64,000 nt of DNA from Clostridia bacterium (GTDB lineage: Bacteria > Bacillota > Clostridia > UMGS1883), in NCBI GenBank assembly GCA_017451505.1, contig JAFTOF010000002.1, positions 65,042 to 129,041 on the forward strand, read 5' to 3'. Position 1 is the first letter of the stretch, and every line of letters starts with the position of its first letter. Below, in pieces: positions 6,717 to 63,040 of the stretch. Below the pieces are notes generated by a model that worked only from the letters and a program-made list of their open reading frames with translations, had not been told where the DNA came from and made no database searches. Made by a program: the position numbers and the translations under genes.

Positions 6717-6907
6717 TTTAATTCCCTCCCAATTTTAAATCACAAAATAGCCATATATAGTTATAATAACACTTTTCTTTCTTTATTTCAACATATTTTT
6801 GTTAATCTTTACGAATTTGTTACATTTTTAATAATTCATACTTTCCATATAACCAAAGAGATGTATTAAGCATAAAATAAAGTATGTATAAAAAGGGAGA
6901 GATTTCA

Positions 6908-7162
6908 ATGCTTGCAACAATGGCTTCAATCACATCTGCAACAAGACTGAAACGGCACGCCTACGAATTCGGAGTATACTCCTCCGTTATCCAGACCCCT
7001 CAGCAAATAGCAAGAGAGGGATGCGGGTACAGTCTGCGTTTTGATGACAGTGCAAAAAACATAGTATTAAATGCCGCCAAAGAGCTTGGCGTAAGAATAC
7101 GCTCTTTTTACTATGAAAGCGAATCTGAAGGCAAAAAAACCTATTCAAAAGTGGTAGAATAA
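6908..7162 (+). CDS. DUF3343-like small protein (putative Se/S carrier-like)
   Basis: Small ORF with RBS GGGAGAG before ATG 6908. It sits immediately upstream of a class-V aminotransferase, the usual partner of this family. The track ORF starts at 6884. Confidence 0.5.
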   Translation: MLATMASITSATRLKRHAYEFGVYSSVIQTPQQIAREGCGYSLRFDDSAKNIVLNAAKELGVRIRSFYYESESEGKKTYSKVVE

Positions 7163-7173
7163 GGAGGAACGTA

Positions 7174-8286
7174 ATGATTTACCTTGACAATGCCGCCACA
7201 ACATTTCCCAAACCCCAAAGTGTAATTGACGCTGTTTGCGATTGTATGAAAAACTACGGCGGAAACGCGGGACGCGGAGGACACTATCTTGCAAGGAAAA
7301 GCTTTGAAAAGGTTTATGAATGCCGTGAGGTAATGGCAGATTTTATCAAGGCTGACAGTCCCGAACAGATAATTTTCACAAAGAACACCACAGAAGCAAT
7401 TAATTTAGCCGTAAAAGGAATTATTAAAAGCGGTGATGAAATTATTATCTCCTCAATGGAGCATAACAGTGTTTTAAGAAGCTGTATCAGTATGGAAAAG
7501 CGTGGAGCTAAGGTAAAGATTGTGCGTGCAAACCACGAGGGTTGTGTCAGTGCAGACGATGTCATTTCTGCAATCACAGCTCAAACAAGGCTGATTTGTA
7601 TTATTCATGCTTCAAATGTTGTAGGCACAGTTAACCCTGTAAGAGAGATTTGCAAACGTGCACGGGAGAAAAATGTACTGACACTGGTAGATGCGGCACA
7701 AAGCGGCGGAATACTGCCTGTCGATACCTCTTGCGGAGATTTAATCGCGTTTGCAGGTCACAAAGGGCTTTACGGTCCTTTTGGCACAGGCGTTTTATAT
7801 ATTCGTAAAGGCTTAAAGCTTGACACATTAATTGAAGGCGGTACGGGAAGCTTGTCCGAAAGTGCCTTTATGCCCGAAAGCCTTCCCGAACGGTTTGAAG
7901 CTGGTACTGTTAATACCTGTGCAATAGCAGGACTGTGCGAAGGCATCAAATTTGTAGTAAATGAAGGGGTAGCGGAAAGAGAAGCCGAGCTTGGTGCATT
8001 TTTTAAAGAGCAGCTTTCCACGGTGAAAGGGATAAAGCTACTGGGAAAAAGCGACACCGCTGTTATGGGAGTTCTTCTTAAAAACCATGATTGTGTTGAG
8101 GTGGCGGAAAGACTGGATGCCGAATATAACATAGCAACACGTGCGGGACTACATTGCTGTCCCATGGCACACAGAACATTGGGAACAATATCAAGCGGAC
8201 TTCTTCGGTTTTCAGCAGGCTATTTTAACACAAAAGATGAAATAACAACTGCGGCAAAAGCACTTGAAAATATAATTTCCGAGTAG
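7174..8286 (+). CDS. Class-V aminotransferase, cysteine desulfurase/selenocysteine lyase family
   Basis: PLP-lysine context FAGHKGLYGPFGTGVLY; C-terminal RAGLHCCPMAH. Confidence 0.8.
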   Translation: MIYLDNAATTFPKPQSVIDAVCDCMKNYGGNAGRGGHYLARKSFEKVYECREVMADFIKADSPEQIIFTKNTTEAINLAVKGIIKSGDEIIISSMEHNSVLRSCISMEKRGAKVKIVRANHEGCVSADDVISAITAQTRLICIIHASNVVGTVNPVREICKRAREKNVLTLVDAAQSGGILPVDTSCGDLIAFAGHKGLYGPFGTGVLYIRKGLKLDTLIEGGTGSLSESAFMPESLPERFEAGTVNTCAIAGLCEGIKFVVNEGVAEREAELGAFFKEQLSTVKGIKLLGKSDTAVMGVLLKNHDCVEVAERLDAEYNIATRAGLHCCPMAHRTLGTISSGLLRFSAGYFNTKDEITTAAKALENIISE

Positions 8287-8374
8287 TATATTTTACAATT
8301 AAATTAAATTATGAAAAAAATACTTTCATTAACTCAATTTTTATTGTATAATATTATATTATACGTAAAGGTGG

Positions 8375-9232
8375 TTGGAGTTATTGTTTGAAGCATTGAT
8401 GAGCGACATTGCATTGACATTATCATTTCTGCGGTTGACAGATATAATTGATATTGCAATTGTCGCATTTGTTTTTTACAAATTATCTTCTCTGGTACGC
8501 GAAACCAGAGCCGGAACACTTATCAAGGGAATTATACTTCTATTAATTTTCACATGGATAAGTGATGTCTTTGAACTTACTACTATAAATTACCTGCTTC
8601 GTAATTTGATGCAGTTTGCACTTATCGCCTTTATCGTAATTTTCCAGCCGGAGCTGAGGCGTGCTCTTGAACAGGTGGGCAGAGTGAACTTTTCCTCTCT
8701 GTTTACACAGGATGAAAAGAATGATACGGAGCTTCTCGCCTCCGAAATTGCATCTGCCGCCGTGGCTATGTCAAGCCGCAGAATCGGTGCACTGATGGTA
8801 ATCGAGAGAGAAACCAAAATCGGCGATATTGTAAGAACAGGCTGTGAGCTTAACGCCGATGTATCCAGTGAATTACTTATAAATATATTTATTCCCAACA
8901 CACCTCTGCACGATGGTGCAGTTATAATCAGAGATAATAAAATCATAGCGGCACGCTGTATTCTCCCCCTTACGCCTAATGAAACCTTGAGCCGTGAGCT
9001 GGGAACAAGGCACAGAGCCGCTCTGGGACTTTCCGAGAGTTCTGACGCAGCAGTCATAGTTGTCAGTGAGGAAACAGGGAAAATCAGCTTTACTCTGGGC
9101 GGAAATATGAGCCGCAACTATACTGAAGATTCTTTGAAAAAGGTTATTATTAAGGTCCTTGCATCCGATTCTTCAGATAACAATGACAATTCTTTGTCAA
9201 AGTGGAAGGAGCGCTTAAAATGGAAAAAATAA
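8375..9232 (+). CDS. cdaA: Diadenylate cyclase CdaA
   Basis: Three N-terminal TM helices plus a DAC domain (GALMVIERE, PLHDGAVII, LGTRHRAALGLSE, VVSEETGKIS). Start uncertain: TTG 8375 or 8384, or ATG 8399. Confidence 0.9.
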   Translation: MELLFEALMSDIALTLSFLRLTDIIDIAIVAFVFYKLSSLVRETRAGTLIKGIILLLIFTWISDVFELTTINYLLRNLMQFALIAFIVIFQPELRRALEQVGRVNFSSLFTQDEKNDTELLASEIASAAVAMSSRRIGALMVIERETKIGDIVRTGCELNADVSSELLINIFIPNTPLHDGAVIIRDNKIIAARCILPLTPNETLSRELGTRHRAALGLSESSDAAVIVVSEETGKISFTLGGNMSRNYTEDSLKKVIIKVLASDSSDNNDNSLSKWKERLKWKK

Positions 9233-43334: not shown

Positions 43335-45563
43335 TTACATCTTTTCGTGGAATGTACGCGATATTACTTCAAGCTGTTTATCCTTTGTCAGCTTATTGAA
43401 GTTTACTGCATATCCGCTTACACGAATTGTGAGAGTGGGATAAAGAGTGGGGTCATTCATTGCATCAATAAGCTTCTGGCGGTTAAGCACGTTAACATTA
43501 AGATGATGTGCGTCCTGCGCAAAATATCCGTCAAGCACGGTGGTAAGATTTTCCACGCGGTTATCCTCATCTGTTCCAAGTGCCTCGGGCGTAATGGAGA
43601 ACGTATTTGAAATGCCGTCCATACAACAACCATAGTTAATCTTTGCCACGGAGTTAAGTGATGCCAATGCACCCTCCTTATCTCTTCCGTGCATGGGATT
43701 TGCCCCGGGAGCAAATGCCTCCCCTTTCTTTCTTCCGTCGGGGGTTGCACCTGTTTTCTTTCCGTAAACCACGTTTGAAGTTATTGTCAGAATCGAAAGA
43801 GTGTGGCGTGCATTGCGGTACGTCTTTGTCTTACAAAGCTCGCTGTAGAAAAATTCCGTTATCCATTTTGCAATGCTGTCTGCCCTGTCGTCGTCGTTTC
43901 CGTACTTGGGGAAATCTCCCTCTATATCAAAGTCGGTTATTAATCCGTTTTCGTCCTTTTTCGGAGTAACACGTGCATATTTAATTGCACTTAAGCTGTC
44001 TGCAAGAACGCTCAGTCCGCTGATTCCAAACGCCATAAGACGCTCAGGCTCCACATCATGGAAGGACATCATAAGACGCTCGTAGGCGTACTTATCATGC
44101 ATATGGTGGATTACATTCATAGTGTTAACATAGAGCTTTGCCATCCATGCCGCATATGTTTTGAATGCTTCCAGTACTTCCTCGTAGTCAAGAGTTTTTT
44201 CATCAAAAACCTTTCCTTCGGGGGCAATCTGCTCGCCGTAGATTTCATCCTTACCGCCGTTTAATGCCATAAGAAGAACCTTTGCCAGATTACAGCGTGC
44301 ACCAAAGAACTGCATCTGCTTACCTGTTTTCATAGCACTTACACAGCAAGCGATTGAATAATCGTCGCCAAAATCCTTACGCATCACATCGTCATTTTCA
44401 TACTGAATGGAGTCGGTATCGATTGACACCTTCGCACAGAAATCCTTAAATGTCTGAGGAAGCCCCTGTGCCCAAAGAACAGTTATATTGGGTTCTGCGG
44501 AAGGACCAAGGTTATAAAGTGTCTGCAAGAATCTATAACAGGTCTTTGTAACCATGGTTCTGCCGTCCTCACACATTCCGGCAAGGGAACAAGTAACCCA
44601 AACGGGGTCGCCTGCAAACAGGTCATTATATTCGGGAGTACGCAAATGGCGGACAAGACGCATTTTAATTACCAAATCGTCAATAAGCTCCTGTGCACCT
44701 TTTTCATCGAGAGTACCCTCTTTAATATCACGCTCAATATAAATATCAAGAAATGCGGAGATTCTTCCGATACTGTTAGCCGCACCATTCTGCTCCTTAA
44801 CTGCACCGAGATAACCAAAATAGAGCCACTGAATTGCTTCACGTGCATTTTCCGCGGGACGGGTAATATCGCATCCGTACTGCTTTGCCATAATAACAAG
44901 GTCGTTCATAAATTCAAGCTGACGGGAAATGTCTTCAAGAAGTCTGATGGTATCATCGGTCATATCCCTCTCACCGATACGCTCTTTATCAGCTTTACGC
45001 TCGCGGATAAGGTAATCCATTCCGTAAAGGGCAATACGGCGATAGTCGCCTATAATTCTGCCTCGTGCATATGCATCGGGAAGCCCCGTAAGTATTCCTG
45101 CATGGCGGGCTTTCCTCATAGTTTCCGTGTAAACACGGAATACACCTGTGTTATGTGTAGTACGGTACCTGAACTCATCTTTTATATTCTCTCCGATTTC
45201 ATAGCCGTACGCTTTACATGCCTGAACGGCATTTCTGTAGCCGGCAAAGGGATTAACGGCTCTTTTAAGAGGCTCATCTGTCTGCAAGCCTACAATTAAG
45301 TCGTCCTCTTTGATAACGTAGCCCGGCTCGTAAGTAAGAAGTGAAGAAACCCTCTCGGTGTCGATATCAAGAACGCCGCCCTTTTTTGTTTCCTCTATAA
45401 TAAGCTCCTCAACACGTTTTTTTACTCTGTCTGTGCGGGGTGTTGTACCTGATAAAAAGGAAGCGTCCCCCTCATACGGTGTATAATTCCTTTTAATGAA
45501 ATCACTTACATCTATTGTGTTATTCCAATTTCCCTCATTAAAATTGCGTTTGTAATTCTCCAT
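43335..45563 (-). CDS. pflB: Formate C-acetyltransferase (pyruvate formate-lyase)
   Basis: 742 aa; glycyl-radical motif [11 protein letters not shown]; active-site CC in SIACCVSAM. Confidence 0.96.
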
Positions 45564-45595: not shown

Positions 45596-45692
45596 TTTAA
45601 AAAGGCACCCCGAAAATGAGGTGCCCAGACGGTCGGCAATTATGACTCCTGTTCCCTCATAGTTTTCTATGTCTCCGTCAGTAGCAGGAATC
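45596..45692 (-). promoter_or_regulatory. ZTP (pfl-motif) riboswitch with terminator expression platform
   Basis: Minus strand: P1 GAUUCCUG/CAGGAGUC; J1/2 CUACUGACGGAGA; P2 CAUAG-AAAA-CUAUG; 3-prime subdomain GCCGACCGUCUGGGCA, with GACGG/CCGUC pseudoknot potential. The terminator GGCACCUCAUUUUCGGGGUGCC plus U5 overlaps it. The TTGACA-17-TATAAT promoter is at 45727-45699. Confidence 0.7.
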
Positions 45693-45747
45693 ATTTATAT
45701 TATAGCGTATGTTTTCATTTTTGTCAATGGAAAATATAAACACATTT

Positions 45748-46355: not shown

Positions 46356-47237
46356 CTACGCTCTCGGATGTGCTTTTTTATATATCTTTTTAATGTTGTT
46401 TTTGAGCACTTGGTTATATATTCGCGTTGTTACCACATCATTATGCCCCAGCATTTCCGAAACGGCATTGATGTCTGCACCGTTTTGCAAAAGGTGTACT
46501 GCAAAGGAGTTTCGGAGGGTTTGGGCTGTAATTTCCGTTTTAATGCCTGCACTTTGTGCATAGCTGCGGAGAATCTTCCAGAAGCCCTGCCTTGTAAGGG
46601 GAGTTCCGCTGCAATTTACAAAAAGATTTTTTTCCTTACTGTTATTAATAAGATACGGACGTGCCTTTTTTATATACTCATCAAGTGCATCTGCCGCCTC
46701 TTTGCCAAAAGGTATGTACCTTTCATTTCTGCTTCCCACACAGCTTAACATTCCTCCGCGAATATCCACATCTTTCAGCGTAAGAGCTATTATTTCCGAT
46801 ACTTTTATTCCTGTCGCGTAAAGAAGTTCCAGCATTGCCTTATCACGGATTCCTTTTAAATCAGTGGTTTTAGGCTGATTTAAAAGCTTTACGACCTCTC
46901 TTGTGGTGAGTGCCTCGGGGATTTTTTTCTTAACACGGGGAAGCTGGATGCCGCAGGCGGGATTAATCTCAAGCTCTTTCTTCGTAATTCCCCACTGGTA
47001 AAATTTTTTCAGGGAGGCTGTCTGCCTTGAAATCGTGGAATGTGCCTTTCCCTGTGCCCTGAGGTGCTCTATGTAGGCATTAAGGGTTGTCCGCTTTACG
47101 GCGAAAACATTTTTTACTTTATTCTCTTTTAAATAGGAAAAATACGTTTCCAAGTCACGGACATAAGAAGTAAGTGTATTTTGCGACATTCTCTGTTTTT
47201 TTAAATACACCTCATATTCCGCTATTATTTCATTCAT
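46356..47237 (-). CDS. xerD: Tyrosine recombinase XerD/XerC type
   Basis: SAM-like N-terminal domain; ATGIKVSEI (Arg box region); RNSFAVHLL; LGHNDVVTTRIY (catalytic Tyr). Confidence 0.85.
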   Translation of the reverse strand: MNEIIAEYEVYLKKQRMSQNTLTSYVRDLETYFSYLKENKVKNVFAVKRTTLNAYIEHLRAQGKAHSTISRQTASLKKFYQWGITKKELEINPACGIQLPRVKKKIPEALTTREVVKLLNQPKTTDLKGIRDKAMLELLYATGIKVSEIIALTLKDVDIRGGMLSCVGSRNERYIPFGKEAADALDEYIKKARPYLINNSKEKNLFVNCSGTPLTRQGFWKILRSYAQSAGIKTEITAQTLRNSFAVHLLQNGADINAVSEMLGHNDVVTTRIYNQVLKNNIKKIYKKAHPRA

Positions 47238-52300: not shown

Positions 52301-52360
52301 AAATAATAAAGAATGTGCCAAAGGTGATTAATCACCTTTGGCACATTCTTTATTATTTTT
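52301..52360. terminator. Long perfect palindrome / bidirectional terminator
   Basis: AATAATAAAGAATGTGCCAAAGGTGATT | AATCACCTTTGGCACATTCTTTATTATT: 28-bp arms flanked by A- and T-runs. Confidence 0.75.
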
Positions 52361-52553
52361 TGAAAATTGTTTTTATTTTAAATAGGATTTTCTTTATTCC
52401 CTTTTTCTCCATAGGCACGTAATAATTACAACGGATTCCGTTATAACATTCATAGTACGGGCATACGGGAGAGCTTGGGTCAATTCTGCAGCTTTCCTCC
52501 CCTGTCTTGCAATCAGGACAAAGGATTCGTCTTTTCTTCATTTTTACCTTCAT
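52353..52553 (-). CDS. Small Cys-rich basic protein, unknown function
   Basis: 66 aa; CPDC...C...CPYYEC...C pattern with Lys-rich ends. GGAGG RBS lies 9 nt before the ATG. Confidence 0.5.
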   Translation of the reverse strand: MKVKMKKRRILCPDCKTGEESCRIDPSSPVCPYYECYNGIRCNYYVPMEKKGIKKILFKIKTIFKK

Positions 52554-52685
52554 TTGTCTGCACCTCCGTTGCGAAGTGGAACTTTACTTGCAGCATCTGT
52601 GCATAGCCTCGGGGAAAAAGTATGCACAGTTATATTTAGTTGAAGCTATACACAGATGTCACAATATGCAAAACGCCTGATGGCA

Positions 52686-53261
52686 TCATTGCAACGAATT
52701 AGAATGATTTCTATCTGCACTTGCTTCTAATGCTTTATTAGCTGCCTTTATTTTTTCCTCGTCCATTCTCGGAGGAACCATTTCTGCTCCCACATATTTT
52801 TCCTCTGCACTTCTGTGCACCCAACTCATTCCGATTGGGGCAAGGAATATTGCAATTCCCATTATGGTGTGAAAAATCACCGCAGAATAAACCGTAGGTA
52901 AATAAAGATTTGTATATCTGGCAAATTTGGTGACTGCAAAGAGCCATGTATATGTTTCGGCGGAAAAAAGCTTGTACGTTAATGCCGTTACCAGTCCGAA
53001 AACTAAGTATGCACCATAATTTACAAGGAAATACACCTTTGTATTTCGTAAAACGTAATAGCACGCTCTCATCATCCAAATATTAACGGCTACGAAAAGA
53101 GCCGCCGCGATATACAGCCCTATTACAAGCTCCCGACTTCCGTCGGGAAGGGCATTAATTTTGCATAAAAAAGATATTACAGCCGACAGCAAAACACAAC
53201 TGCCTGTTATCTCCATAAATCTTTTATATGCCGCATATAGGATAAATTTGTTCATCTTCAC
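52686..53261 (-). CDS. Polytopic membrane protein, unknown function
   Basis: ~5 predicted TM helices and a hydrophilic C-terminal tail. Same strand as, and downstream of, the giant exoprotein gene. Confidence 0.55.
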   Translation of the reverse strand: MKMNKFILYAAYKRFMEITGSCVLLSAVISFLCKINALPDGSRELVIGLYIAAALFVAVNIWMMRACYYVLRNTKVYFLVNYGAYLVFGLVTALTYKLFSAETYTWLFAVTKFARYTNLYLPTVYSAVIFHTIMGIAIFLAPIGMSWVHRSAEEKYVGAEMVPPRMDEEKIKAANKALEASADRNHSNSLQ

Positions 53262-53282
53262 TGTCCTTCATATGATGTCTGT

Positions 53283-53307
53283 ATGGGGCTATAGAATATA
53301 GCCCCAT
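53283..53307 (-). other. Perfect 11-bp stem-loop between the 56-aa ORF and the membrane protein gene
   Basis: ATGGGGCTATA-gaa-TATAGCCCCAT. No U-tract follows it on the coding (minus) strand. Confidence 0.6.
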
Positions 53308-53330
53308 ATTTTACTTACTTGTGATAGGAA

Positions 53331-53501
53331 TTAGTTGTTTCCCCAGTAGCCTGTTCCTGCTTCTACACTTCCGTTTCTTGGAACTATAGGAGTCTGATTC
53401 TCGCCGGGAGTGTATCCACTAGCCATAATAGGATCTGTGCATACAGCTTCAGTCTGAGAGAAATCAATTATTTCAATTTCGGGTTTTAAATATTTCATCA
53501 T
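53331..53501 (-). CDS. Untracked 56-aa ORF (below the track length cut-off), unknown function
   Basis: MMKYLKPEIEIIDFSQTEAVCTDPIMASGYTPGENQTPIVPRNGSVEAGTGYWGNN*. GGAGG RBS lies 6 nt before the ATG. The ORF begins 14 nt after the stop of the 1707-aa gene. Confidence 0.55.
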   Translation of the reverse strand: MMKYLKPEIEIIDFSQTEAVCTDPIMASGYTPGENQTPIVPRNGSVEAGTGYWGNN

Positions 53502-53515
53502 AATAAACCTCCTAA

Positions 53516-56500
53516 TTAATCATTCGCATGCATTGCTGCATATGCTGATGTTGCAAATTTTGAAGCCATTTCAAAAAGCGGATCTGCTTCACCAGTATTT
53601 TGAATATATCCTAAATATTCATTAATGCTATCCTGTATCCAAGCATACTCACTTCCGTCTGCATTATAAACTGTTATTTTTACGGGCTGATTTATATCAG
53701 CAATAACAAGTTTATCAACAATAACTTCATGATAACGTCCGTTTTTCTTAAGTTCAGCTTCATAGGAATAAGAATCTCCGTTGTGGTTAGTAAATTCAAC
53801 TTTTGCGGTCATATCATCTGTTACTCCAGTAAACAGAGCTATAAGTTCAATCTTATTATCCAGATTAAGAGATGTAGCATAAGCACCCTCTCCACCTGAC
53901 TTGTATTCGCCAGCGTAATTTACTTTGGTAGATGCATACTCAGCAACATTATCCGCTGCGGTAACATTTACAAGTTTATCAGCATTGTAACCAAAGTATG
54001 TCTGTGCTGCCGCACCATAGTTAAGCATATCAGCGATAGCTTGCTTCCACAGTTTCATGCTTGAATCATTTTTATAATAGTTAAAGTAGTTTATAGCATA
54101 GTTCTCTAAGCTTTCTGTTTCAGTTTCACTTACTGCTGTACCATCTGTTTTACAAATTGTAATTTCTACAACATCACCCATCTGCTTTGCAGAAATTCCG
54201 TCATAGGGAATGTAGATATAGTCTCCGTTTGACACCCAAGCCGTGTATGGAATTTCTTTTTCTTCTACGCCTGTTGCTGTAGTATGCTTGATTTTTGCAA
54301 CATAGTCAGTTCCCACTATATCACTCTTTGCATAAATGAAGTTAATAGCAAGCGAATTACCAAGTGTTGCATTTGTTAATGCCAGCTTAAACTTCTCAAC
54401 TTCTTCAATTTCTTTCAGGCTATACTTACCGTCAGTGTAATCAACCTCGTAACCATCTACAGTTGAATTAACTTCAACACCTTCCTGTGCGGTAATTGTA
54501 GCATTAACATCTTTCAGGTTAATTGTACCTTTGTTTGTAAGTGTGCCTGCAATCTTCGCTGTACCTACAATGTTCATTGTACCCTTTTCAGTCACAAGGA
54601 ACGACTGTGTGGTTTCAAATTCAGAGGTTGCATCGATGTTCATGACACCAAGAGCTTCATAGCCAAGTCCCATGCCATTGTGGTTATTAACGATAACCTT
54701 TGAATTATTGTTAAGAGTGATTGTAGCTGTTGCGTCCACGCCACTCTCTGTTTCAGAAGCAGGACGACCGCCAACACTGAAGCCGTGCTTAACAGTAAGT
54801 GTACTGTTATCAAGAGTCATAGTGCCCTTGTTGATAAGATAATCAAGGTCAATTACAGAATCCTTGATAATAACAGTACCGTCATACTTATTGTTGGTAT
54901 TCTTTTCACGTCCTGAAACGTGGATACCTATACCTGTTGGAGACTGACCAGAAGCAGATGTAAGGTTCGCTTTGTCAAAGGTAAGAGTACCATTGCCTTC
55001 ACCGCCACGGCCAACGAACAGGAAGCCCTTGCTCCAGTCAACGTCAGCTGTACCTGTAATGGTAACAGACTTACCGAAAACTGCACCGTTCATAGCGATA
55101 GGAGCGTCGCCTTCTGCCCAGATAAGGGTAACTGTTTCGCCATCTTTTGCAGCTGCAAGAGCGTTTTCCAAACTGTCATATGTTGTTTCGCCGATTTTTG
55201 CAACAGGTTTTGCAATATTAGAAGCGGCAAATTTATATTTCTCGCCAATAGTATAGCTTTCGCTTTCGTCCTTGGGGTTATACATACGAAGCTCAAGCGT
55301 TACTTCAAAATCGGGATTTTTCGCAAGGAATTCTTCTTCAAAAAATACACCGCAGTTGAAATCCTTAACAAATCCATAAACATCGTTATATGTTAATTTA
55401 AGTCCGGATTGACCCATAATGTATGCAGCATATTCCATAATCTTAATGGGCTCGTTTGCTTTAAGGGTTACATCTTCAAACGGAACATTAACCCAGTTTT
55501 CACTCCATGCATCATACTGACCGGAAAGATAGCCGTCTGCCCCACCGTTTGCGTTAAATGTTACATCCTTGTTCACTGTAAGAACGTAATCTGCAAACCA
55601 GTCGCCATAGTAAGCAAGCTGTGCTTCGCTTGCTTCATCTGCTTTGAAGTTAAGAGCAAATGTCAATTCATCATTTTTAATCTCTGTTACTGTAGCTGTA
55701 GGAAGCTCAATAGCTCTAACACCGCCAAGGTCTTCCCAAACAACAGGATTGACACCATCAGCACCGTTCATCTGTGCAGCTGTTGTTGAAACAAGAGTGC
55801 CGTCGATGTAAAGCTCAACCTTAGTAGGTTTATTAAGTGCATTGGGATGTCCTTTTTCCCATGTAGTTGTCCAATAATCATCATTAGACTCGGGATAGAA
55901 GAAATTCCATGTTACTGAATCCTGTGAGCCGTCGATGATATTATTGACATCATTAAGCACTGTTGTAGCCATAAGGGTATCTTCGGAGTAAAGCTTAAGT
56001 ACAAAACTTTCTGCCGCATTTGTGTTTTCAGACTGTCCCCAAACACGTACATACCCGTCAACTTCCTTGGTATACGCAAGAGAGTTGGAGCCTTTGGCCG
56101 GGATATAGAACTCATCCTGTGCGGTGATTTCTCCGCCTGCATCAATCTTGTTGTCATCACCCTTGGTTAAGTCAAGAGTGTTTCCTGTTGCAGTAACATT
56201 ACATGTATTGTCAGCTGTGTAAGACTTAATGTTTACATAACCGTTATTTACAGTATTTCCTGTGAATGTAACTGCTTCACTTGCACTTACAAGTGCACTT
56301 GCATTATTGAAATTGCTACCTGTAACGCTTACAGACTTAGCATCCTTACCGCTCTGGTTATCAGATACACCATAAGACCAGTTGGTGAATGTACAGCCTG
56401 TAATTGTTGCTGTTACATTGGAAAGTGCATCGCCTGCACCCTCACCGAAAATGATAGCACGCTTGGAAGATGAGCCGTTACCGATAAACTTACAGTTCTC

Positions 56501-58639
56501 TGCCGTGATGCTCAACTTGGAGGAGATACCTCTCTGAACACCTGTAGCTTCGCTTACGTCGATTGTGAGGTTTTTAACTGTAGCAACATCTTCAAATCTA
56601 AATACTGTGTTCCAGTTCTTGTCATCAACAGCACCGGTAAGCTTGATTGTCTTTCCGTTACCATCGATTGTAACAGGAACGGTTATCTTCGCACCGTTAT
56701 AGCGGCAGTCCCAAGCATCGGAAATTGTTACATCAGCAAGAAGTGTAAGAGTTGCACCGCTTGTGAGTGCTTTGAGTGCCGCCTGCAAGTTGAAGTAGAT
56801 ACTACCATTCACCTCGGCTACGTCGTCAGTAGCAGTGATTGTAGCACCCTTTGCTGTTGCGGTTACATTTGTTACAGTCACTTCGGTCATAGTACTGCAC
56901 TCACCGTTACCAGCAATATATCCCATACAATAATCGCTGTCTGATGTAATTTCTACATTTTCAGCTGAAACATTTGTTACGGTATTTCCGTCCTGCAACA
57001 GACCTGCTACCGCGGCAGCTGCACCATAAGCACTCCAAATATCAAGGCCTGAAACGGAGCAGTTGGTGATAGGAGTACCGCCTTCTCCGGCATAACCGAT
57101 GATACCGCCTGCACACCAGTAACCTGCGTGCAGATAGCTACCGTCATTAGCTTTTACATGACAGTTGTCAATATCTGGGTAGCCGTGACCTACTATACCT
57201 CCGACATATCCACAACCAACAACATAAACATCACCGCCAACGGTAACGTTGGATACGATTGAATTGCCACCGGCATTTGCTATAACGCCGCCAACGTAAT
57301 CGCCATGCCCCGTTGTCCAGTGGTTAGTAACGTTTGCAGAAACATCCACATTGTTAAACTTCAAATTCTTAATGGTGGGAGTACAATCTTCGCTATAGTT
57401 ACCGACGCGGGCAAAGAATCCCAAATGGTCGCCATCGGCATTGATGTATAGATTGGATATAGTATGATTACCGCCATCAAAAGTACCCAGAAAAGCCATA
57501 TGATCCCCAACGGAGTTTGTACCAATAGGTTCCCAATTTTCGCCAGCAAGGTCAATGTCAGCATTTAGCTTAACATACTTGCCTTTGAACTGGTTGGAGC
57601 CGTCGGACTGATAGGTGTTGACAGTGTCTCTGAACCAAATCAATTCATTAAGGTTGTTGATAAGATACGGATCTTCTTCCGTTCCTGTACCGCTAAGACC
57701 GGTTGTTACCTTTACTACAGTACCATCAATGCTTCCACTTGTAATAGTAGGTTCTTTATCAACACTAACGGTTGAATCAGCGGAAACTGTTACCGTCTGA
57801 TTTCCGCGTACATCAATAGTAGCCTCCTGAGAGTTGGTAATAGTTACGGAAGAACCATTTATATTAACATCACCACACACTGCAGTAATACCGCGGCCAC
57901 TCAAATTAGACATAGTAATTGTAGAGTTATCTATAGTCAAAGGACTATAGTTGAAACCATGTTTCATTTCATCATCTACACCGTCAGCGTCACCGGAAAT
58001 TGTTAGTGTGGAATCTTCAATTGTTGTATCAGCATATGTAACTACACGACGTACATTGTGCAAGTCCATAGTAGCACCGATGATGTTGAGAGTTGCACTT
58101 TCGCTGTCAGCTTTAAATACTCCGCCTGCACTGTATTTATCATTAGAGAGAGTCCATGTTCCGCCGTTTACATTAAGCACACTGGAAGCACCAATGTAGA
58201 ATATACCAAATGCGGAACTGTAGTTGCTGCCTGTTACATTAACATTGTTGAGTGTTACAGTTGTTACGAGTGTTTTCTCATATTCGTCAATGCGGAAAAT
58301 TGCATTAGCACTTGCAACTACACCGTCAATATTAATTGTACCATTCTCAAACGTAAGATTAGTAACATCCTCGAATCTGTTATCACCTGCACGAACATTA
58401 AGTGTTTTTCCGTTCAGGTCAATTGTTGCAGTTACGCCGGAAGTAGTTATTGCTGATGTGATTGTGATATCAGTTCCCAGCTTAACTGTGCCGCCAACTG
58501 TAAGAGCAGCTTTAAGATCTGCTTCAGTATTGACTACTGCTGCAGTGCTTTCCTCCGCCATTGCCGTGATGCCGACACAACCGAGTGCCATTATCATTGC
58601 AACAAGCAAAGATAAAATTCTTTTCATTTCTTGTATCAT
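53516..58639 (-). CDS. Giant secreted protein (1707 aa) with parallel beta-helix-type repeats and a GLUG-motif region; no recognisable wall anchor
   Basis: Signal peptide MKRILSLLVAMIMALGCVGITAMA. Ser/Thr/Asn/Gly/Val-rich beta-helix-like repeats. FLGTFDGGNHTISNLYI followed by YVGGVIANAGG / YVGGIVGHG / CAGGIIGYAGEG (GLUG-type). No LPXTG, SLH, dockerin or C-terminal TM. Confidence 0.8.
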   Translation of the reverse strand: MIQEMKRILSLLVAMIMALGCVGITAMAEESTAAVVNTEADLKAALTVGGTVKLGTDITITSAITTSGVTATIDLNGKTLNVRAGDNRFEDVTNLTFENGTINIDGVVASANAIFRIDEYEKTLVTTVTLNNVNVTGSNYSSAFGIFYIGASSVLNVNGGTWTLSNDKYSAGGVFKADSESATLNIIGATMDLHNVRRVVTYADTTIEDSTLTISGDADGVDDEMKHGFNYSPLTIDNSTITMSNLSGRGITAVCGDVNINGSSVTITNSQEATIDVRGNQTVTVSADSTVSVDKEPTITSGSIDGTVVKVTTGLSGTGTEEDPYLINNLNELIWFRDTVNTYQSDGSNQFKGKYVKLNADIDLAGENWEPIGTNSVGDHMAFLGTFDGGNHTISNLYINADGDHLGFFARVGNYSEDCTPTIKNLKFNNVDVSANVTNHWTTGHGDYVGGVIANAGGNSIVSNVTVGGDVYVVGCGYVGGIVGHGYPDIDNCHVKANDGSYLHAGYWCAGGIIGYAGEGGTPITNCSVSGLDIWSAYGAAAAVAGLLQDGNTVTNVSAENVEITSDSDYCMGYIAGNGECSTMTEVTVTNVTATAKGATITATDDVAEVNGSIYFNLQAALKALTSGATLTLLADVTISDAWDCRYNGAKITVPVTIDGNGKTIKLTGAVDDKNWNTVFRFEDVATVKNLTIDVSEATGVQRGISSKLSITAENCKFIGNGSSSKRAIIFGEGAGDALSNVTATITGCTFTNWSYGVSDNQSGKDAKSVSVTGSNFNNASALVSASEAVTFTGNTVNNGYVNIKSYTADNTCNVTATGNTLDLTKGDDNKIDAGGEITAQDEFYIPAKGSNSLAYTKEVDGYVRVWGQSENTNAAESFVLKLYSEDTLMATTVLNDVNNIIDGSQDSVTWNFFYPESNDDYWTTTWEKGHPNALNKPTKVELYIDGTLVSTTAAQMNGADGVNPVVWEDLGGVRAIELPTATVTEIKNDELTFALNFKADEASEAQLAYYGDWFADYVLTVNKDVTFNANGGADGYLSGQYDAWSENWVNVPFEDVTLKANEPIKIMEYAAYIMGQSGLKLTYNDVYGFVKDFNCGVFFEEEFLAKNPDFEVTLELRMYNPKDESESYTIGEKYKFAASNIAKPVAKIGETTYDSLENALAAAKDGETVTLIWAEGDAPIAMNGAVFGKSVTITGTADVDWSKGFLFVGRGGEGNGTLTFDKANLTSASGQSPTGIGIHVSGREKNTNNKYDGTVIIKDSVIDLDYLINKGTMTLDNSTLTVKHGFSVGGRPASETESGVDATATITLNNNSKVIVNNHNGMGLGYEALGVMNIDATSEFETTQSFLVTEKGTMNIVGTAKIAGTLTNKGTINLKDVNATITAQEGVEVNSTVDGYEVDYTDGKYSLKEIEEVEKFKLALTNATLGNSLAINFIYAKSDIVGTDYVAKIKHTTATGVEEKEIPYTAWVSNGDYIYIPYDGISAKQMGDVVEITICKTDGTAVSETETESLENYAINYFNYYKNDSSMKLWKQAIADMLNYGAAAQTYFGYNADKLVNVTAADNVAEYASTKVNYAGEYKSGGEGAYATSLNLDNKIELIALFTGVTDDMTAKVEFTNHNGDSYSYEAELKKNGRYHEVIVDKLVIADINQPVKITVYNADGSEYAWIQDSINEYLGYIQNTGEADPLFEMASKFATSAYAAMHAND

Positions 58640-58770
58640 CCTTTCCTTTAGATGTCTGCGGTTCTTACCGTCACCGCTTCGGGCAGAAATTGTCTTTTAT
58701 TTAAGGCTGCTGCTTCTGCACATACGCAGCCCTTGGGACAACTCCCATCTATATTAACCCCTGTGGGGAA

Positions 58771-59049
58771 TTACATTCTTTCTCTCCGTTTTTGCCCTCT
58801 TTTTCTGCTCATATTAACAAGGTGCTTACCCACCAAAGGAATCATACTAAGATACAGCCTTTTCATTTCGTGTTGCCAATGAATCCGTTCATTCCCGTGA
58901 GAACGCATTATTTCAAGCTTGATGAAATCGCGGTCATCTGCAAAGGGAAGATATACGCACGTAATAAATTTCATCATCAAAATAATAAAAATCAAAATTA
59001 CCAGGCATATGCCCAAAACCACTACTAATAAATCTGCTCTTGTATACAT
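58771..59049 (-). CDS. Small single-pass membrane protein with basic C-terminus, unknown function
   Basis: 92 aa; one N-terminal TM helix (LLVVVLGICLVILIFIILMM). GGAGTG RBS-like element lies 9 nt upstream. Between the TetR gene and the giant gene. Confidence 0.4.
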   Translation of the reverse strand: MYTRADLLVVVLGICLVILIFIILMMKFITCVYLPFADDRDFIKLEIMRSHGNERIHWQHEMKRLYLSMIPLVGKHLVNMSRKRGQKRRERM

Positions 59050-59131
59050 TAATTCATCACTCCAAAAGATGTCACACTACGATGTCCTTTTGTCGCCAAA
59101 AGGACCAAAAACGCCGGGATTGTTTTTAATT

Positions 59132-59695
59132 TCAAATTTTAACCGTTTGCAACGTTAAAATTGTATTGTACAAAAACTTCATCTGCATATCGGAGGCTTC
59201 CCTATCCTCCCACACACAGTAATCAACCAGAATCGAAATCAGCATATATATGATTGGTGCCATCATTTCAGGCTTGATGTTTGTGAGCTGTGACAGCTCG
59301 ATTATGTATTTTTCATATACTGCTTTAAATTCCTCGGTTTTTGCTTGCACTGCTTTACCATAGTCGGGACTGGTGGCAAACTGGAAAACACGCCTCATCT
59401 CTTTGCGGTACTTATCAACCTCGTCAAGGAAAGTGTCAAAGAAAAGTTTCGGATCGTGCATTCTTTCAAATGCTACCTTAAAAAGTTTGTCCGCAACCTT
59501 TTCCACTCCGTATTTAACCACGTTTATGTAGATATCCTCTTTTCCGTCAAACCAATAGTACAAGCTGCCGTAGGAAACCCCCATTGCTTTGCATAAATCA
59601 CGCACTGAGGTGTTTTCCAATCCGTTTTCTACCAGATATTGAAATGAAGGCTCCAGAAATTCTTTTTCAATATCCTTTACAACCTGATTTCGCAT
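59132..59695 (-). CDS. TetR/AcrR-family transcriptional regulator
   Basis: N-terminal HTH TSVRDLCKAMGVSYGSLYYWFDGKEDIY. GGAGA RBS lies 5 nt before ATG 59695; the track ORF starts at 59737. Confidence 0.85.
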   Translation of the reverse strand: MRNQVVKDIEKEFLEPSFQYLVENGLENTSVRDLCKAMGVSYGSLYYWFDGKEDIYINVVKYGVEKVADKLFKVAFERMHDPKLFFDTFLDEVDKYRKEMRRVFQFATSPDYGKAVQAKTEEFKAVYEKYIIELSQLTNIKPEMMAPIIYMLISILVDYCVWEDREASDMQMKFLYNTILTLQTVKI

Positions 59696-59782: not shown

Positions 59783-59806
59783 ACCACATAATCGAAATTA
59801 TGCGGT
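59783..59806. repeat. Palindromic 24-bp site, copy L1 (10-4-10)
   Basis: ACCACATAAT-CGAA-ATTATGCGGT; one mismatch to copies L2 and R. Confidence 0.85.
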
Positions 59807-59815
59807 AAAAACCTA

Positions 59816-59843
59816 GAACCACATAATCGAAATTATGTGGTTC
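59816..59843. repeat. Palindromic site, copy L2 (24-bp core, extends to a 28-bp 11-6-11 palindrome)
   Basis: GAACCACATAA-TCGAAA-TTATGTGGTTC. Core 59818-59841; same centre orientation as L1, 35 bp away. Confidence 0.85.
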
Positions 59844-59939
59844 TAAGGTCAAAATTTAATACAGCTGGCATTCTTTTTTTGTAAAAGGAGGGCTCCTTGG
59901 GTTAGTTGACAGGTTGTTTTTAAGAAAAAGCGGCATGGT

Positions 59940-59980
59940 AAACAGACCAATATGTGTAAAATAGATACATTGGTCTGTTT
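59940..59980. other. Perfect 12-bp hairpin inside the bracketed segment
   Basis: AAACAGACCAAT-n17-ATTGGTCTGTTT. Confidence 0.7.
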
Positions 59981-60036
59981 GCCATACACGTTTTTTTGCA
60001 TTTTAACTAAACTTGGTGTAAATTCTATGTATGTAC

Positions 60037-60065
60037 TTGACAAACAAACTCCCCAATGTTATAAT
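60037..60065 (+). promoter_or_regulatory. Perfect consensus sigma-A promoter inside the bracketed segment, currently reading rightward (+)
   Basis: TTGACA (60037-60042), 17-nt spacer ending in TGT (extended -10), TATAAT (60060-60065). Confidence 0.75.
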
Positions 60066-60100
60066 ATTCCTGCAAATTAGACGTTCTCTTGTGTTGAGTT

Positions 60101-60124
60101 ACCACATAATTTCGATTATGTGGT
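60101..60124. repeat. Palindromic 24-bp site, copy R (inverted centre)
   Basis: ACCACATAAT-TTCG-ATTATGTGGT is the exact reverse complement of the L2 core. It lies 13 nt beyond the recombinase stop. Confidence 0.85.
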
Positions 60125-60136
60125 ATTTTTATTTTG

Positions 60137-62430: not shown

Positions 62431-62466
62431 AAAACAAAATGTCCCATATAAGGGACATTTTGTTTT
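62431..62466. terminator. Bidirectional intrinsic terminator
   Basis: AAAACAAAATGTCCC-atataa-GGGACATTTTGTTTT. Confidence 0.75.
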
Positions 62467-63040
62467 AAGGAATATACAGTTGTTTCGTCTTTTTATCTAC
62501 ACATACTATAACATAGCCGTTTTGGGTTAATTTCATTTTACCCAGAAATTCCAAAGGATTTGGTTCATCATCACTGCATTTAAGGGCGACTGCTGCCGTG
62601 CCGTCTCCCTCACCCACCCAATAGTGACCGTACTTTTTATAGTTATGATAAACATCTTTATTGCTGATAATAAATCTTAGTTCGCGGCACAAGTCGTTAT
62701 AATTTTTTGATTCGATTTTCTTCCAGTTTATCCCCGGAATATCAAAGGGGCTGCTTTGCTTTTTTAAAAATGCGGTGTTTTCGCCGTATTTTCCTATAAG
62801 CATCTGCCTTCCGCCCTGTGTAATCAGAATTCCGCTATGCCTTGTGGTATCAATCTGTTTATTTAGTTTTCCGTCCACAATGTTTCCGATTGGTACTGCT
62901 TCTCCCCCTATAAGCCACGCTTTCAGACTTCCGTTAATTCCGCTTATTTCAATTTCAACGCTTTGGGGAGATATTTTGGCACTTCCTCTGCCAATATCGG
63001 CGAGCTGAAGAAGCTCTATCCTTTTTTCCATTATATTCAC
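62465..63040 (-). CDS. Hypothetical cytoplasmic protein (191 aa)
   Basis: Clean ORF bounded by a terminator; no motif I can assign. Confidence 0.5.
   Translation of the reverse strand: MNIMEKRIELLQLADIGRGSAKISPQSVEIEISGINGSLKAWLIGGEAVPIGNIVDGKLNKQIDTTRHSGILITQGGRQMLIGKYGENTAFLKKQSSPFDIPGINWKKIESKNYNDLCRELRFIISNKDVYHNYKKYGHYWVGEGDGTAAVALKCSDDEPNPLEFLGKMKLTQNGYVIVCVDKKTKQLYIP

Follow-up and report, generated by a model that had tools for sequence, protein, structure and literature searches.

What does a short invertible promoter control in an uncultured gut bacterium when the gene behind it encodes a giant secreted protein, and which of the neighboring genes belong to the same system? The question is raised by a locus in a 64,000-nt stretch of DNA from a Clostridia bacterium (GenBank assembly GCA_017451505.1, contig JAFTOF010000002.1, positions 65,042 to 129,041), hereafter the window. 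Six open reading frames (ORFs), all on the minus strand, are bounded by a tyrosine-recombinase inversion switch on one side and by a bidirectional terminator on the other. They encode a TetR-family regulator, a small membrane protein (p92), a giant exoprotein and three further small proteins (pA, pB and pC). A sequence-only reading of the window had described these ORFs as the cargo of a putative switch and had proposed a phase-variable giant surface protein with dedicated partners. Its observation was confirmed, as all six co-directional ORFs are present and the palindromic terminator that it placed at the end of the unit was found; its interpretation was partly supported. We conclude that the cargo is probably a phase-variable, strain-hypervariable exoprotein operon at a fixed chromosomal site in an uncultured clade of gut Clostridia.

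Invertible promoters in front of surface structures are a main way in which gut bacteria vary what hosts, phages and antibodies see. To our knowledge, nearly all worked-out cases come from Bacteroides, Enterobacteria and C. difficile. The locus described here provides a clean, comparatively validated example of such a switch in an uncultured Clostridia lineage of ruminant and human guts.

The invertible promoter, its fixed site and its variable cargo

The 24-nt site ACCACATAATCGAAATTATGTGGT occurs three times in the window (0 copies expected by chance in 64 kb): twice in tandem on the cargo side, 35 bp start to start, and once in inverted orientation beside the recombinase gene (Table 1). The inner cargo-side copy (IR-L) and the recombinase-proximal copy (IR-R) are perfect 24-nt inverted repeats, 259 bp apart. 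The second tandem copy is present in some related loci only, and a third site of this kind would permit two alternative inversion end-points. The product of the adjacent gene matched Pfam Phage_integrase (9.3e-27) together with a SAM-like N-terminal domain, was XerA/XerD-like in NCBIfam, and shows the catalytic motifs GIRVSEL, HNLRHLF, GHSGINTT and RIYT (R..HxxR..H..Y) in its translation. The gene was found in every related locus, and its product is the putative cognate enzyme for the 24-nt sites.

The segment between the two repeats carries the only 12/12 match to a sigma-70 promoter within 9.5 kb. In the window this promoter heads toward the recombinase gene and away from the cargo, and we therefore read the switch as OFF. 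The promoter and its position are conserved in all related loci; it points toward the cargo in 8 distinct loci (ON) and away from it in 7 (OFF). The most direct comparison is with a public contig (L144/L149) whose recombinase and tetR-p92 DNA is 100% identical to that of the window. Its 259-bp segment is also 100% identical, only as the reverse complement, and we take this contig to be the ON form of this locus. The same relationship holds between L006 and L018, from two metagenome-assembled genomes (MAGs) of one species recovered in different studies: identity is 99.5% in the flanks and 99.6% in the inner segment, the latter only as the reverse complement. Among other loci, the segment of L001 is 91% identical to that of the window as the reverse complement, and that of L007 is 94% identical in the forward orientation. 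The cargo, whose giant protein was called phase-variable in the sequence-only reading, is thus under an invertible promoter that stands in both orientations on identical flanks.

Assembly breaks point the same way. Logan unitigs of three metagenomes stop exactly at the repeats, with a separate 313-nt unitig covering 59812-60124, and three independently assembled contigs, plus a 144.9-kb scaffold carrying this cargo, begin at the repeat. Mixed orientations would produce such breaks, which are suggestive and not proof. As a separate observation, IR-R and its flank (60092-60135) reached a depth 4-25 times that of the surrounding sequence in four gut metagenomes, and several unrelated contigs match this stretch only. 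These two observations indicate that the 24-nt site occurs at further loci or in other genomes of the gut community.

The switch also contains structures that could shape transcription in either state. On the plus strand, IR-R forms a hairpin followed by TTTTTATTTT and is terminator-like; on the minus strand, IR-L and its flanks form a 16-bp stem followed by TTTTTA. In the OFF state the promoter would run into the IR-R hairpin and its tail and then antisense into the recombinase gene, which, as speculation, could bias switching. Inside the segment lies a long palindrome in which changes in one arm are matched by changes in the other from species to species (CAAT/ATTG, CGGT/ACCG, CGAT/ATCG), whether or not the locus has TetR. 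We rejected a TetR operator, as the palindrome is equally conserved in TetR-less loci. Because it is conserved with compensatory changes regardless of TetR, we read it as probably an insulating bidirectional terminator of the cassette.

The position of the operon is fixed, between the groES-side M23 peptidase gene and nrdR. A pB profile search over 185,579 species genomes returned 14 loci, all of them from MAGs whose titles read "Clostridia bacterium" and whose sources are ruminant, roe-deer, Hadza and Nepalese guts, and in these 14 species-level genomes the whole module adjoins nrdR. The order is groES, a conserved ORF of ~190 aa, M23 peptidase, recombinase, switch, TetR (optional), p92, exoprotein, pA, pB, pC and then the convergent nrdR-rpiB-tsaB-tsaE. 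By ORF and BLAST annotation, p92, exoprotein, pA, pB and pC form the core set in every locus of sufficient length; L005, L006/L018 and L021 have no TetR. Look-ups of five exoprotein homologues gave the identical gene arrangement each time. Three human gut loci (L015-L017) carry a reduced variant without p92 and pC, in which a shorter secreted protein with a different C-terminus (514 aa in L016, at least 626 aa in the contig-truncated L015) precedes pA, a copper-amine-oxidase-N-like 'stalk' protein and a pB of 155 aa. The secreted 'stalk' protein lies between pA and the shortened pB at L015:2159-2605 and L016:9498-9956. One species has a second large ORF (L010:11005-15870, 1621 aa, weakly GLUG-like) that separates pC from nrdR. 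The partners had been called dedicated, and the gene set does recur as a unit in the 14 genomes; the description fails for pC, which also occurs in mobile-element contexts, and TetR is an optional member of the set.

Close relatives were defined as loci with a recombinase at least 89% identical to that of the window. In these, identity to the window is 93-100% for NrdR and at least 85% for pC, and falls to 48-89% for pB, 36-84% for p92, 39-49% for pA and 35-84% for the C-terminal domain (CTD) of the exoprotein. Exoprotein alleles span 779-2925 aa. The sharpest case is the L144/L149 allele (6728-9067): its first 285 residues are identical to those of the window, the remainder is unrelated, and the protein ends at 779 aa with no CTD. 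The DNA upstream of the divergence is 100% identical to that of the window, and the transition is read as a sharp, recent recombination breakpoint inside the exoprotein gene. The beta-helix/GLUG passenger of the exoprotein is mosaic and is exchanged between strains through recombination. A phase-variable, hypervariable exoprotein operon is well supported by these comparisons, and its interest lies in one giant protein being both switched ON/OFF and exchanged between strains.

Layout and transcription of the cargo

The coordinates of the switch and its cargo are collected in Table 1. For the exoprotein, a start at ATG 58627 (MKRIL...) is favored because of the position of the ribosome-binding site (RBS) and the orthologues, and it matches the database protein P0001. 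The regulator matched TetR_N (PF00440) at 35.9 bits against a cutoff of 24.

Table 1. Features of the inversion switch and cargo genes, in window positions.
Feature	Position	Strand	Remarks
Tyrosine recombinase (invertase), ~272-279 aa	60137-60955	-	Adjoins switch
Recombinase-proximal inversion site (IR-R)	60101-60124	.	Exact reverse complement of IR-L
Invertible segment, 259 bp	59842-60100	.	Read as OFF orientation in window
Sigma-70 promoter, TTGACA-17-TATAAT with extended -10 TG	60037-60065	+	Perfect consensus match
Long palindrome within invertible segment	59925-59995	.	A-run and T-run on its flanks; upstream of promoter
Cargo-proximal inversion site (IR-L)	59818-59841	.	
Second, tandem site copy, cargo side	59783-59806	.	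1 mismatch
TetR-family regulator	59132-59695	-	First cargo gene, optional part; Pfam TetR_N
p92, 92-aa membrane protein	58771-59049	-	Always just upstream of exoprotein gene
Giant exoprotein	ORF 53516-58639 (1707 aa); likely start 58627, giving 53516-58627 (1703 aa)	-	
Exoprotein signal peptide MKRILSLLVAMIMALGCVGITAMA	58556-58627	-	AMA|EE signal peptidase I site
Exoprotein GLUG-type right-handed beta-helix core, residues 300-720	56480-57742	-	Predicted; AlphaFold2 and Foldseek
Exoprotein CTD, residues 1385-1707	53519-54487	-	Homologue alignment and AlphaFold2
pA, 56-aa acidic peptide	53331-53501	-	
Intercistronic hairpin between pA and pB, no U-tract	53281-53309	-	12-bp stem
pB, 189-aa membrane protein	ORF 52686-53261; likely start ATG 53255	-	
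pC, 66-aa Cys-rich protein	52353-52553	-	
Bidirectional intrinsic terminator	52307-52352	.	20-bp stem; common to cargo and convergent nrdR

The absence of a strong U-tract terminator between the genes, noted from the sequence alone, held. No stem-plus-U-tract terminator was found between the cargo genes, and the minus-strand matches inside the operon are short stems within ORFs. The hairpin between pA and pB had been overlooked. It lies at the same place in 12/12 loci examined, with 12-17-bp stems of differing sequence and 0 U-tracts, and the pA-pB intergenic stretch ranges from -19 to -45 kcal/mol across loci. This conserved hairpin appears to divide the operon into two expression units, exoprotein with pA and pB with pC. 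We infer that it acts as a partial terminator or 3'-end stabilizer that would keep the dosage of exoprotein and pA above that of pB and pC.

A stronger version of this division would be that the six genes are not one operon, the hairpin after pA being an effective terminator and pB and pC being transcribed independently of the switch. The hairpin is strong and conserved in all loci, and the only RNA contig that covers pA stops at 53318, just before it. This 263-nt contig (53318-53580), one of a few low-depth contigs on the cargo in two gut metatranscriptomes, spans the exoprotein 3' end and the entire pA and gives weak support for their co-transcription. Independent transcription of pB and pC is nevertheless unlikely: the hairpin has no U-tract, no promoter-like site separates it from pB, pB begins ~25 nt past it with its own RBS, and the strand and order of pB and pC never vary.

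Searches for other functions in the cargo gave little. Rfam returned hairpin artefacts only and no riboswitch or other known RNA element; PHROGs gave no support for a phage origin of the cargo proteins; and for anti-phage defense PADLOC gave just two chance-level TetR matches. Elsewhere in the window, a 191-aa ORF between groES and the G5/M23 peptidase gene (62465-63040, minus strand) is kept at the same position in every related locus with 56-91% identity, and no Pfam match is on record for it in those loci. A ZMP/ZTP riboswitch (45616-45695, minus strand; 56 bits against a gathering score of 39) lies upstream of a 742-aa ORF (43335-45563). A 293-aa ORF (46356-47237, minus strand) matches, in length and relative position, the second tyrosine recombinase gene in the syntenic flank of related loci. 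That second recombinase is ~22% identical to the switch recombinase, and the window ORF is, by length and position, possibly a housekeeping Xer.

The exoprotein and the small proteins beside it

The exoprotein signal peptide, proposed from the sequence alone, is present and conserved (KKILSLLVAMxMxLxCVGITAMA|EE) among otherwise divergent alleles. Lipoprotein anchoring through its Cys was rejected, as L005, L006 and L021 have Ser or Thr in its place. Because the lipobox-like Cys is not conserved, we assign the signal to the signal peptidase I type. Beyond the signal, the exoprotein family is mosaic, with 154 matches, of which residues 300-650 are the most widely shared. Pfam Glug scored 19.5 bits on the window protein against a gathering cutoff of 20.5, and homologues pass the cutoff or carry Beta_helix matches. 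An AlphaFold2 model of residues 300-720 (predicted local distance difference test score, pLDDT, 86.6) is a right-handed beta-helix, in agreement with the fold that had been proposed. Its best Foldseek match in the PDB was the GLUG-type protein 3n6z (TM-score 0.64 normalized to target, E 2.1e-6, root-mean-square deviation 3.8 A over 321 columns); lyases, tailspikes and an SRRP adhesin matched weakly. A search of the PDB with the whole exoprotein sequence found nothing.

The opposite end of the protein is conserved in another way. The CTD comprises the last ~310 aa and recurs at the extreme C-terminus of ~19 homologues with 24-55% identity; it is present in most, not all, alleles. Its AlphaFold2 model (pLDDT 87.6) consists of two beta-sandwiches, each followed by a helical hairpin, so that the exoprotein C-terminus is a soluble helical hairpin. 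The CTD had no Pfam match, and Foldseek against the PDB gave generic Ig/FnIII folds only (TM-score ~0.2). Motif and Pfam scans of the exoprotein found no LPxT[GAS], SLH, CWB2 (PF04122, E<=0.1), dockerin, choline-binding or type IX secretion system (T9SS) domain and no C-terminal transmembrane (TM) segment. The term 'anchorless' used in the sequence-only reading is thus correct as to known anchors and misses that most alleles end in this conserved module, at the position where passenger-sharing homologues carry three SLH repeats, a T9SS tail or a dockerin. Because of this positional equivalence, the CTD may be a retention or sorting module. We found no toxin domain in the exoprotein, and a polymorphic toxin or contact-dependent inhibition system was rejected because the polarity is reversed: the C-terminal 310 aa are conserved and the middle is variable.

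The missing anchor could also mean that the cell releases the exoprotein as an enzyme for nutrient acquisition, for example a polysaccharide lyase or glycosidase built on a beta-helix, with the small genes as unrelated neighbors; the beta-helix model does match PL6 alginate lyases, polygalacturonases and tailspike depolymerases. However, those matches have TM-scores of at most 0.27 and deviations above 12 A, whereas the single good match, 3n6z, is to a GLUG helix that is not catalytic. Homologues sharing this core terminate in retention modules (SLH, T9SS or dockerin), phase variation together with allelic replacement is typical of exposed antigens, and synteny of the small genes extends across 14 species-level genomes. 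We regard a released enzyme as quite improbable.

None of p92, pA, pB and pC had a family in Pfam, NCBIfam, PHROGs or PADLOC. The statement that the downstream partners lack an assignable family is thus borne out. p92, pA and pB belong to tiny families restricted to loci of this kind, and pC to a broad family of small four-Cys proteins. Alignment, hydropathy and charge show a single TM helix at the N-terminus of p92, together with a conserved, strongly basic domain of ~60 aa, which is probably cytoplasmic. The family counts 49 proteins among 5.8 billion, with no annotation and no Pfam match. Its distant members also directly precede giant secreted-protein genes (L022, L023, L045 and L093). In L022, a recombinase, a switch of the same type, TetR and p92 precede the genes for a GLUG protein of 1243 aa, a protein of 840 aa and an SLH protein of 637 aa, after which come a pC-like gene and a sortase. 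In L023 p92 is followed by a 2781-aa protein and a pA-like gene. L045, L088 and L093 share a 911-1005-aa protein whose C-terminal sequence, read by eye, looks dockerin-like, an SLH protein of 1525-1574 aa (confirmed by Pfam in L045) and pC. In L045 and L093 this set is preceded by p92; the L088 contig does not reach far enough upstream to show whether p92 is present.

pA is acidic and has no signal peptide. A strong RBS precedes it, and a conserved N-terminal motif of ~22 aa (MKYxKPEIExxxF..DVIxTS) is followed by a hypervariable tail of Gly, Pro and acidic residues. pA-like genes adjoin giant exoprotein genes in more distant loci as well. For pB, ~5 TM segments had been proposed; hydropathy shows four clear ones, together with the conserved motifs Y(S/T)WLF..T and FLAPIGMGW and a charged C-terminal tail. 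Its family numbers 62 proteins under 'Clostridia bacterium' names only, and no Pfam match was obtained for 7 members scanned at E<=1. pB is not present in four SLH-containing p92/pC loci of metagenome contigs (L045, L086, L088 and L093). The idea that pB is a CTD-specific receptor was weakened, and pB is not considered tied to the CTD, because the CTD-less L149 allele retains it.

As a peptide of 45-56 aa beside a ~190-aa membrane protein, pA and pB also recall AgrD/AgrB. pA might then be a ribosomal peptide (a bacteriocin or signaling precursor) and pB its immunity or processing protein, merely co-transcribed with the exoprotein; the conserved N-terminus of pA would be leader-like, its hypervariable tail core-like, and pB alleles form two identity classes among close relatives. 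We hold this to be very improbable, as pA lacks a signal peptide as well as a double-glycine or Cys-rich core, neither a C39/ABC exporter nor a modification enzyme is encoded in the locus, pB does not resemble AgrB, a membrane peptidase with catalytic His and Cys (no match of pB to PF04647 or another Pfam family at E<=1, and no invariant His or Cys), and every pA or pA-like gene adjoins a giant exoprotein gene (directly downstream in syntenic loci, upstream in L086).

pC has four invariant Cys (CPxCKTG-12-CPY-8-C), consistent with a putative zinc ribbon, and basic tails. A degenerate DNA pattern scan for pC-like ORFs in metagenomes gave 80 loci to read, with 73 pC-like ORFs, 0 of them next to pB or a CTD. 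Many precede a DUF6017/HTH_36 gene and then an SNF2/methylase giant or an SLH surface protein. SNF2/methylase giants are typical of conjugative elements, and pC-family proteins may serve mobile elements as small regulators. A dedicated partner was therefore rejected for pC, in view of its broad family and these contexts. The rule that pC beside a giant ORF marks a surface module proved only partly true, since some giants are SNF2/methylase proteins of mobile elements. Five contigs (L037, L039, L067, L090 and L091) show a pC-like gene, a DUF6017/HTH_36 gene of ~290-313 aa and an ORF of 1200-1800 aa; the large ORF of L090, the one of the five that was scanned, encodes a secreted SLH protein. In other metagenome contigs the pC-like gene precedes a 2800-aa SNF2/methylase protein.

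Taken as a phase-variable exoprotein operon, the locus might work as follows. A flip of the cassette would let the promoter transcribe TetR, p92, the exoprotein and pA, and the conserved hairpin after pA would then reduce read-through into pB and pC. The exoprotein would be exported by Sec, cleaved by signal peptidase I and, with the CTD serving in retention or sorting, placed at the surface, where it could act as a variable adhesin or as a shield against host, phage or immune pressure. The conserved 5' and 3' ends of its gene would serve as recombination anchors. p92 and pC may be membrane-proximal cytoplasmic helpers that bracket giant exoprotein genes irrespective of anchor type. pA and pB would go with exoproteins lacking a known wall-binding domain, probably in biogenesis or retention at the membrane. 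The surface location and these partner roles are inferred.

Several points weigh against this interpretation. An ON transcript must cross the IR-L hairpin and its TTTTTA, and in the window also the hairpin of the second site; the arrangement is attenuator-like, and attenuation at the IR-L hairpin is possible. The metatranscriptome signal consists of a few low-depth contigs and could be DNA carry-over. The CTD is unlike any known anchor in Pfam or in the PDB fold search, and the CTD-less 779-aa L149 allele still has pA, pB and pC. In L023 the pA-like gene is followed by a gene on the opposite strand, with no pB in between. The pC family is broad, with 171 cluster representatives in an exhaustive HMMER search, often on mobile elements. 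Finally, the host organism is uncultured.

A bolder extension of the operon reading is that p92, pA, pB and perhaps pC form an unrecognized, dedicated biogenesis and retention apparatus for giant Sec-exported proteins in monoderm Clostridia, with the CTD as its sorting or docking signal and with TetR and p92 coupling the ON state to other loci. We consider the full proposal rather unlikely. If true, the p92/pA/pB set would be an alternative to the sortase/LPxTG, SLH, CWB2 or accessory-Sec routes. What the comparison does define are three tiny protein families (p92, pA and pB) and a new conserved C-terminal domain that travel with giant exoproteins, and these are candidates for an unrecognized step in the export or retention of very large Gram-positive proteins.

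Comparison with known systems

A limited full-text literature search yielded no description of such a module, in line with its having been called undescribed. The structural match 3n6z (B. ovatus BACOVA_03286, 'putative IgA1 protease') shares the GLUG right-handed beta-helix with the exoprotein at 22% identity, and some exoprotein homologues have Peptidase_M26_N matches on record. Unlike IgA1 protease (Peptidase M26), the exoprotein has no HExxH in its 1707 aa, no Peptidase_M26 match and no M26 catalytic domain; because these are absent, nothing points to protease activity. The homologues P0043, P0047, P0055, P0031 and P0059 have the GLUG/beta-helix passenger in common with it, at 44-65% identity, but carry SLH, T9SS or dockerin C-termini in place of the unannotated CTD.

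The fim switch of E. coli, served by FimB/FimE (NCBIfam 'tyrosine-type DNA invertase', PRK09870/PRK09871), resembles the locus in having short inverted repeats around a promoter-bearing element of ~300 bp beside one or more tyrosine recombinase genes. The recombinase of the locus differs in being XerA/XerD-like (137 bits against 28-34 bits for the Fim-type invertases), and one recombinase is found with three sites. Bacteroides capsular polysaccharide loci have invertible promoters, with UpxY/UpxZ as first genes. They share with the locus an invertible promoter before a long surface-structure operon that opens with regulators, a position taken here by TetR and p92. In contrast to a glycan pathway, the cargo here is one giant protein. 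Neither TetR nor p92 is related to UpxZ or to the NusG-like UpxY, and regulation in trans by them is speculation.

In function, the closest known analogue is the Clostridioides difficile CwpV/RecV system. The invertible element of cwpV does not contain the promoter, and its orientation acts on termination; in the locus, by contrast, the promoter lies inside the invertible segment and the recombinase gene is adjacent. The locus also lacks a CWB2 domain and CwpV repeats, its conserved module is C-terminal and of unassigned fold family, and its p92, pA, pB and pC have no CwpV counterpart. What the two share is a large secreted protein of a gut clostridial organism made phase-variable by a short invertible element that a tyrosine recombinase flips. 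According to the published descriptions, CwpV is a cell-surface protein under a RecV-controlled switch (PMC2784873, PMC3080850) and combines a conserved anchoring part with a functional part that shows sharp, antigenic differences from strain to strain (PMC3080850).

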